1,108 nucleotides of DNA from Escherichia coli. Its GTDB lineage: Bacteria; Pseudomonadota; Gammaproteobacteria; Enterobacterales; Enterobacteriaceae. The notes under the pieces are model-generated. The model was not told the DNA's origin and made no database searches. It worked only from the letters and a program-made list of their open reading frames with translations. A program made the position numbers and the translations under genes. The stretch lies in assembly GCF_003334385.1 (NCBI RefSeq), contig NZ_QOWN01000127.1; one strand, 5' to 3'. Numbering within the stretch: position 1 is the stretch's first letter; each line of letters starts with the position of its first letter. Positions 950-987 of the stretch are shown piece by piece.

Positions 950-987
950 GAAATTCCGAATTTTAATATGAAGTTTTTCGGAATTTC
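950..987. repeat. Perfect 11-bp inverted repeat GAAATTCCGAA (950-960) / TTCGGAATTTC (977-987) with a 16-nt AT-rich spacer
   Basis: Arms are exact reverse complements. The pairing cannot extend outwards (949 a vs 988 c) or inwards (961 t vs 976 t). Not followed by a U-tract on either strand. Centre lies about 79 bp upstream of the -35 centre. Confidence 0.6.

Follow-up and report, generated by a model that had tools for sequence, protein, structure and literature searches.

The window analysed here, a stretch of 1,108 nt of Escherichia coli DNA, carries on its minus strand the 5′ part (282 codons; positions 1..846, ATG at 846-844) of an eib-family gene, together with the 262 nt that lie upstream of it (847-1108). 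The gene product, annotated as 'YadA C-terminal domain-containing protein', is an immunoglobulin-binding trimeric autotransporter. Eib proteins confer non-immunological immunoglobulin binding, serum resistance and chain-like adherence in LEE-negative Shiga-toxin-producing E. coli. They are expressed strongly in static culture and weakly with agitation; expression depends on IbrAB, and its control is otherwise poorly understood. The eib gene is carried by lambdoid prophages, and in P-EibA and in E. coli chromosomes it is found, all on a single strand, in the gene order J - (lom) - tail fibre - tail-fibre assembly - eib - orf156 - orf60 - eaa/S6 peptidase. The upstream region is foreign DNA with a G+C content of 26-36%. 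Many database hits match the window only from position 808, 814 or 826 onward (~98% identity), the remaining coding region being divergent. Different eib alleles therefore share the upstream module and the first signal-peptide codons, implying a recombination breakpoint just inside the gene.

Immediately upstream of the eib start the window contains one sigma-70-like promoter candidate (Table 1), which overlaps an invariant TTTGTATACA block. Further upstream lies the inverted repeat that is the subject of this analysis. The earlier note placed this repeat roughly 60-100 bp upstream of a −35 element, and a promoter scan of the whole window agrees, putting it 58-95 bp upstream of the −35 of the only promoter-like site, on the minus strand; the same scan of the window found no promoter-like site upstream of the repeat. 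Taking the transcription start to be near 857, as placed from the promoter consensus match, the two putative regulator boxes described below are centred ~95 and ~127 bp upstream of it, a geometry that is inferred from the consensus match.

Table 1 Features of the eib upstream region in the window
Feature	Position	Strand	Sequence	Basis or remark
Sigma-70-like promoter candidate, the sole one for eib	892-887 and 869-864	-	TTGAAC, 17 nt, GATAAT	consensus match only
Conserved motif, also the 5′ half of a second hairpin that is degenerate in the window	904..918	-	ATCAGATTTTCTTTA	alignment
Degenerate homologue of box R2	934-947	-	CAGGAGTAAGCTCA	2 mismatches; alignment and scan
Putative box R1, inverted second copy	946-959	-	TCGGAATTTCTTCA (eib sense)	1 mismatch to variant consensus; consensus scan
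Gene-proximal arm	950-960		GAAATTCCGAA (eib sense TTCGGAATTTC)	aligned, in other types, with the module's most variable segment
Spacer (loop), 16 nt	961..976		A/T-rich	most polymorphic part in 52 type-A copies
Gene-distal arm	977-987		TTCGGAATTTC (eib sense GAAATTCCGAA)	inside conserved box L
Putative box L, RcsB/RcsAB-type 14-bp pseudo-palindrome	978-991	-	TAAGGAAATTCCGA (eib sense), TCGGAATTTCCTTA (+ strand)	exact fit to variant consensus

No other perfect short-range inverted repeat in the window is as long as that at 950-987. Its arms are 100% complementary (11/11) across a 16-nt spacer, just as the earlier note described. Dinucleotide-preserving shuffles yield a perfect repeat this long (11 bp or more, loop no longer than 30 nt) in 0.1% of cases for the 262-nt intergenic part and in 0.5% for the whole window, which upholds the claim that it is unlikely by chance. 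In the RNA fold, the stem is 13 bp long, including a G-U pair (dG −13.8 kcal/mol; z −3.4 to −4.5). The identical 38 nt, base for base, are already a 'stem_loop' feature in the GenBank entry for P-EibA (AF151091), and 'stem_loop' features ~100 nt upstream of the start codon are also present in the eibC and eibD entries (AF151674 and AF151675); none of the three annotations has a function attached. The eibC and eibD stem-loops differ from that of AF151091 in that they are formed by different sequences (TAAATTTA arms), in another register, and are not significant against shuffles.

The repeat does not look like an intrinsic terminator, again as first proposed. Neither strand has a U/T-tract, the tails reading TTCAGGAG in the eib sense and CTTACTAT on the + strand, only 4 of the 11 stem pairs are G-C, and a terminator scan found nothing at this position. 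A search of the whole window against Rfam in E-value mode gave no hit at the repeat, and returned only a chance snoRNA match inside the coding region.

We gathered homologous loci with two motifs downstream of the repeat, an anchor pattern that is independent of the repeat itself, and by low-stringency BLAST. The upstream modules fall into at least four types: A (the window and P-EibA), B (phage GER2), C, and a graded D family in which P-EibC/D and eibG-like modules show identities from 98% down to 71%. The module follows either lambdoid tail-fibre genes or giant LPD38-domain genes, and its occurrence in two gene contexts indicates that it travels with eib. In the second context, seen in E. 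coli chromosomes (loci L022 and L024-L027), the place of the lambdoid tail-fibre genes ahead of the eib cassette is taken by an 8.4-kb LPD38/LPD5 'large polyvalent protein' gene, and the cassette is preceded by a G+C-rich hairpin (GCCCCGTACGGAAGTGCGGGGC). This gives the module a second, non-lambdoid home.

Type-A loci also possess a unit that is transcribed away from eib and lies between the eib module and the tail-fibre assembly gene (L001 5120-5540, just past window position 1108; L116 2758-3110). Besides a promoter-like site it holds a small hydrophobic ORF of ~50-57 aa, which is TM/lipobox-like, and, on the strand opposite eib, a pair of strong Rho-independent terminators. The annotators of phage PhiR5_2 call two 49-aa ORFs in this divergent unit beside the eib module. 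The PhiR5_2 'hypothetical protein' lies past the window edge. The + strand ORF at 917-997 (26 aa) that overlaps the repeat is called by no annotator and was rejected as a gene.

A MAFFT alignment of the module types is practically gapless from about −150 to the ATG, and the total length from box L to an ATCAGA motif is constant between types. An 11-nt indel between types that had been proposed from alignment by eye was dropped on these two grounds. The module is in general only ~70% identical between types, and its conserved blocks read, in the eib sense, GTAAGA.AA.TCCTAAA, AAATTAA, GGAATATCCTGA, ATCAGATTTTCTTTA and TTTGTATACA.ATAA.TT..AGG. The first of these blocks contains the gene-distal arm of the repeat, and takes the form TAAGGAAATTCCGA in type A, TAAGATATTTCCTA in type C, TAAGACAAATCCTA in type D, TAAGATAATTCCTA in L026 and TACGATAATTCCTA in type B. 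The gene-proximal arm, by contrast, aligns to the most variable stretch of the module. A further widely conserved block, GGAATATCC, lies just 3′ of the repeat and is represented in the window by AGGAGTAAGC (934-947).

The hairpin itself behaves differently from the conserved block. When the homologous segment is compared with shuffles, type A folds significantly (z about −4.5), folding is marginal in L022 (z −3.1), L025 (−2.2), L004 (−2.1) and L023 (−2.0), where it uses the same 5′ block, and type B, P-EibC/D, L026 and L027 have no significant hairpin in this segment (z +0.8 to −0.7). The pairing register and the pairing partner shift between module types. Imposing the window's 11 pairs on 11 lineage representatives gives pairing in 70% of cells against 65% in shuffles, a difference that relatedness alone can produce; three of the pairs show two-sided changes among these representatives, the total excess again falling within the range expected from relatedness alone. 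The central C-G pairs hold in only 5-7 of the 11 sequences, and one pair is unique to type A. An alignment of 52 type-A copies has 29 variable columns out of ~264. Two of these, each a singleton change without compensation, fall in the 22 arm positions, and three, one of them with a 1-nt deletion, fall in the 16-nt spacer. We find no signal of purifying selection on the arms within type A, where 2 of 22 arm columns are variable as against 24 of 226 in the flanks. The quasi-palindrome is thus ancestral, the perfect stem is a peculiarity of type A and the hairpin is conserved only weakly.

These comparisons bear on the possibility that the repeat acts as a functional RNA stem-loop in readthrough from the tail-fibre operon; it would then be, for the eib moron, a non-canonical terminator, an insulator, or an element that governs processing or stability. 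The perfect stem and its folding energy argue for such a role, as do the 'stem_loop' features that the GenBank depositors drew upstream of eibA, eibC and eibD, the marginal hairpins on the same 5′ block in four other loci and the slight excess of pairing with its two-sided changes. The lack of a U-tract on either strand, the few G-C pairs and the empty terminator and Rfam searches argue against it, and so do the absence or shift of the hairpin in other module types, the uncompensated arm variants and the presence of the central pairs in only part of the sequences. Types B and C already have proper terminators after the upstream tail-fibre assembly gene, and the window offers no upstream promoter-like site from which the repeat would be transcribed. 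A 16-nt spacer also disfavours cruciform extrusion. Like the Rho-independent terminators that bound phage morons, the element is a stem-loop lying between a moron and a late gene of the phage; it departs from them in its missing U-tract, A/T-rich stem, 16-nt loop and unconserved structure. We regard a functional RNA stem-loop as unlikely. With regard to the earlier proposal of a structured RNA element, the perfect stem is limited to one module type, and pairing across types is barely above the A/T-rich baseline. The earlier note had also taken degeneration of the repeat in conserved orthologous upstream regions as part of the evidence against a function, and the repeat is indeed degenerate in types B and D, L026 and L027, yet one of its arms is strongly conserved.

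The 262-nt upstream block is present in 32 of 5,426 complete E. coli genomes, in up to six places per genome, nearly all copies being 96.6-98.5% identical. It also occurs in isolated temperate phages. A collection of plasmids contained no match to the block, and species-representative genomes of other taxa gave only chance hits in unrelated MAGs. To look for further copies of the repeat we used a 50-mer centred on it, which was found at 70 places in 27 of these E. coli genomes, all of which hold the full block, and in no other context. The repeat is thus not dispersed.

This distribution argues strongly against the idea that the repeat marks the end or boundary of a mobile or recombining cassette. 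The presence of the eib module in two contexts, after lambdoid tail-fibre genes or giant LPD38-domain genes, is compatible with a boundary, and BLAST-detectable similarity between types A and C does end near the distal edge of the repeat. MAFFT, however, finds homologous blocks ~100 nt farther upstream in all types, and types A and B share sequence on either side of the repeat. A terminal repeat of a mobile element would be seen in many varied contexts or as flanking pairs; the 50-mer occurs only inside type-A eib modules, never alone, and no second copy flanks the cassette. The suggestion of a recombination or mobile-element boundary, which the earlier note had raised, therefore finds no support in the 5,426 genomes, and we consider it extremely improbable.

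The conserved block containing the gene-distal arm has the form of a binding site for RcsB, a host regulator of the envelope-stress response. The RcsB box is TN(G/A)GAN4TC(T/C)NA, with a lower-affinity variant TN(G/A)GAN4(A/C)CTNA (PMC7913699), and the RcsAB box is TaAGaa|tatTCctA (PMC3950696). We scored as a box any 14-bp pseudo-palindrome fitting the RcsB consensus, its variant or TaAGaatatTCctA. Box L, which consists of the gene-distal arm plus four flanking bases, fits the variant exactly; its extended 18-mer at 974-991 is TAAGGAAATTCCGAAAAA. The inverted box R1 lies over the other arm, 32 bp from box L centre to centre, or about three helical turns. In types C and D, a second exact RcsB-type box (R2, T.GGAATATCCT.A) is located at −99/−100, 43-44 bp from the first box (about four turns). 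Relative to the ATG, exact matches are found at −145 in type A, at −143 and −100 in type C, and at −143, −99 and −210 in the D family, so that the first box stands at the same place (−143 to −145) in all three types, and in types C and D it fits the main consensus there. Type B has no exact RcsB box in the consensus scan. The D-family box at about −210 (for example, L007 about 765-778) lies on the opposite strand (TCAGAAAAAACTTA) and is the third exact RcsB-type box of these modules; L023 adds a fourth at −268. Neither has a counterpart in the window.

The number of sites expected by chance is 0.04-0.09 per 262 nt. The resulting P values are at most 0.001 for L004, L007 and L023, 0.002 for L026 and 0.05 for the window alone, and are to be read in the light of an RcsB consensus that is weak (~14 bits) and A/T-rich, and of module types that are homologous, so that matches in different types are not independent. 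Sites with at most one mismatch are not significantly enriched in the window alone (three observed against 1.05 expected, P 0.09). Conservation follows the consensus, which gives moderate support because the lineages compared are related. Across nine lineages, which are related, the majority base is departed from in 0.56 lineages per consensus-specified column and in 1.58 per box N position (Mann-Whitney p 0.034), and in the same nine related lineages the module background departs in 1.95 per column against the 0.56 of the specified columns (P about 1e-4). Box R2 of L026 and L027 carries a G-to-A substitution that would disrupt a stem pair and yet conforms to the consensus (R = G/A).

The putative eib boxes are close to published RcsB sites, several of which are only 1-3 bases away. 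The published flhD box (TAAGATTTTTCCTA) is nearly identical to the type C box TAAGATATTTCCTA (13/14), as is the ymiA box (TGAGACAAATCCTA) to the type D box TAAGACAAATCCTA (13/14), and the slrP box (TGAGAATATCCTTA) is nearly identical to box R2. Published Salmonella boxes differ by at most one base from the type C and D boxes. Like the eib boxes, the sites of the RcsB homodimer (flhDC, rprA, osmC, fepE, ytfK and others) are 14-bp pseudo-palindromes; types C and D fit their main consensus exactly, and the window fits the lower-affinity variant exactly. Many RcsB-only sites, however, adjoin or overlap the −35, whereas the eib boxes lie ~95-130 bp upstream of the predicted −10, a distance more like that of the far-upstream sites of RcsAB or BglJ-RcsB.

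A close parallel is the autoregulatory RcsAB box of rcsA. The window 18-mer is identical to the K-12 rcsA box (TAAGGATTATCCGAAAAA) at 15 of 18 positions (shuffle P 0.0002), and the box lies at −264 from the rcsA ATG, the same position as that of the Salmonella rcsA box in PMC7913699. The E. coli and Salmonella box shares with the window the half-sites TAAGG....TCCGA followed by an A-tract, and differs from it in the central four bases (AAAT against ATTA). The rcsA operator has two boxes with a separation of ~48 bp, located far upstream of the start site in A/T-rich DNA that H-NS binds (PMC11879457), an arrangement that resembles eib in having two boxes in A/T-rich DNA well upstream of the gene. 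The second eib box is inverted and only 32 bp away. Unlike those of rcsA, the putative eib boxes are carried by a prophage and precede an adhesin gene.

A further similar site lies upstream of K-12 wza (L029), where, at −452 from the ATG, TAAAGAAACTCCTAAAAA is also identical to the window's extended box at 15 of 18 positions. The sequence TAAAGAAACTCCTA, present 452 nt upstream of K-12 wza, is what we take to be the wza (classical cps) RcsAB box. A text search of the literature for the exact wza and rcsA box strings found nothing. Comparison by eye of the repeat with the IHF, CRP, LexA, Fur and HipB-like consensuses gave no convincing fit.

Given these matches, our preferred explanation is that the inverted repeat represents a pair of oppositely oriented RcsB/RcsAB-type operator boxes upstream of the weak eib promoter, an assignment that may be right or wrong with about equal probability. 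Each arm with its flank would form its own 14-bp pseudo-palindromic box, and hence there would be two dimer sites and not one. The earlier proposal of an upstream site for a dimeric regulator is on this account favoured in so far as it invokes recognition by a protein, and is amended in that two dimer sites 32 bp apart, rather than a single dimer spanning both arms, are suggested.

Operator boxes of this kind would make the hairpin potential largely a by-product, because TNRGA and TCYNA are reverse complements of each other and A- and T-tracts flank the boxes, so that two inverted boxes are self-complementary. Binding does not fully explain complementarity at 11 of 11 positions, since an RcsB box needs no identity at N4. 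Copying or quasi-palindrome correction between the two sites may have produced the perfection of the repeat in type A.

A related possibility is that the perfect repeat has no function, having arisen in type A from an ancestral quasi-palindrome through template-switch correction or a small inverted duplication and then spread with the prophage module. A quasi-palindrome is present in other types (9/12 in type B, for example), perfection is limited to type A, the arms are no more constrained than their flanks, and the 96.6-98.5% identity of the type-A copies points to recent spread. A functionless repeat would leave unexplained both why the distal arm falls within one of the best-conserved blocks and why that block matches an RcsB box. 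As a complete account of the element we judge it rather unlikely. A functionless perfect repeat is nevertheless compatible with a functional box L and is not an alternative to it.

The boxes might instead be the operator of another regulator, either IbrAB, of which IbrB is ParB-like, or one encoded by a phage, with the likeness to RcsB sites being coincidental. Palindromes are the typical targets of ParB-family proteins. Conservation of the boxes extends over the module types of the ECOR-9 prophages P-EibA, P-EibC and P-EibD, and IbrAB has been reported to activate eib genes (Sandt et al. 2002, as cited in PMC7649339). However, the agreement of the boxes with the RcsB consensus and with particular validated RcsB and RcsAB sites is far closer than chance would give, and we think that another regulator is decidedly unlikely to account for them. 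Compared with the parS palindromes of the ParB family, the eib element has a similar palindromic symmetry and a similar location upstream of genes that respond to a ParB-like activator, but its arms are 16 nt apart instead of forming a contiguous 16-bp palindrome, and there is no likeness in sequence. More specifically, the boxes could be the cis target of IbrAB (a ParB-like and a PAPS-reductase-like protein), functioning as a parS-like loading site for transcription activation, or RcsB and IbrB could compete or cooperate there; we give this version little credence.

If RcsB does recognize the eib boxes, they would form part of a cis-regulatory module that travels with prophage-borne eib adhesin genes. 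RcsB, as a phosphorylated homodimer or together with an auxiliary partner such as RcsA, would bind both boxes upstream of the weak eib promoter and activate it, and probably would also counter the silencing of this A/T-rich foreign DNA. Production of Eib would thereby be tied to envelope stress and to surface or static growth. RcsA-dependent capsule genes are classically favoured at low temperature. EibG, by contrast, is reported to be lower at low temperature (PMC4352079), so that RcsB, if it acts here, may do so without RcsA. Regulation by RcsB would be consistent with the induction of EibG in static culture (PMC4352079) and with the sufficiency of 168 bp of upstream DNA, in that eibG with only this much upstream sequence complements a deletion (bioRxiv 10.64898/2025.12.25.695649). 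A search of the available literature found no paper linking RcsB and Eib. The proposal, if correct, would mean that the host Rcs relay, which senses envelope stress and surfaces, has taken the prophage 'moron' eib genes under its control. The box pair offers a concrete and cheaply testable hypothesis for Eib control, and the eye-catching perfect hairpin, for 25 years a GenBank 'stem_loop', may simply reflect two inverted operator sites.

The upstream region contains other repeats. A second hairpin, at 893-925 on the minus strand of the window and at about 3030-3075 in L004, is built on the conserved motif ATCAGATTTTCTTTA; it may act as an attenuator, an insulator or an operator. In type C it has a perfect 16-bp stem (CCGAAATACATCAGAT / ATCTGATGTATTTCGG) followed by TTTGTTTG and is terminator-like, ~45 nt upstream of the eib start; in L020 the stem is perfect over 9 bp, and the window has a degenerate version (ACATCAGA / TCCGACGT). 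The palindrome TGTATACA is the basis of a 15-nt inverted repeat (13/15) at 866-880 and 1078-1092, with one copy in the invariant TTTGTATACA block beside the eib ribosome-binding site and the other ~200 bp upstream near the window edge. Just upstream of the 950-987 repeat, at 1003-1012 and 1023-1030, lie two perfect palindromes, GTGATATCAC (10 bp) and GGATATCC (8 bp), which have a common GATATC core and centres 19 bp apart. The first is kept in types A and B (GATATCACCGAC), and the pair may form another operator.
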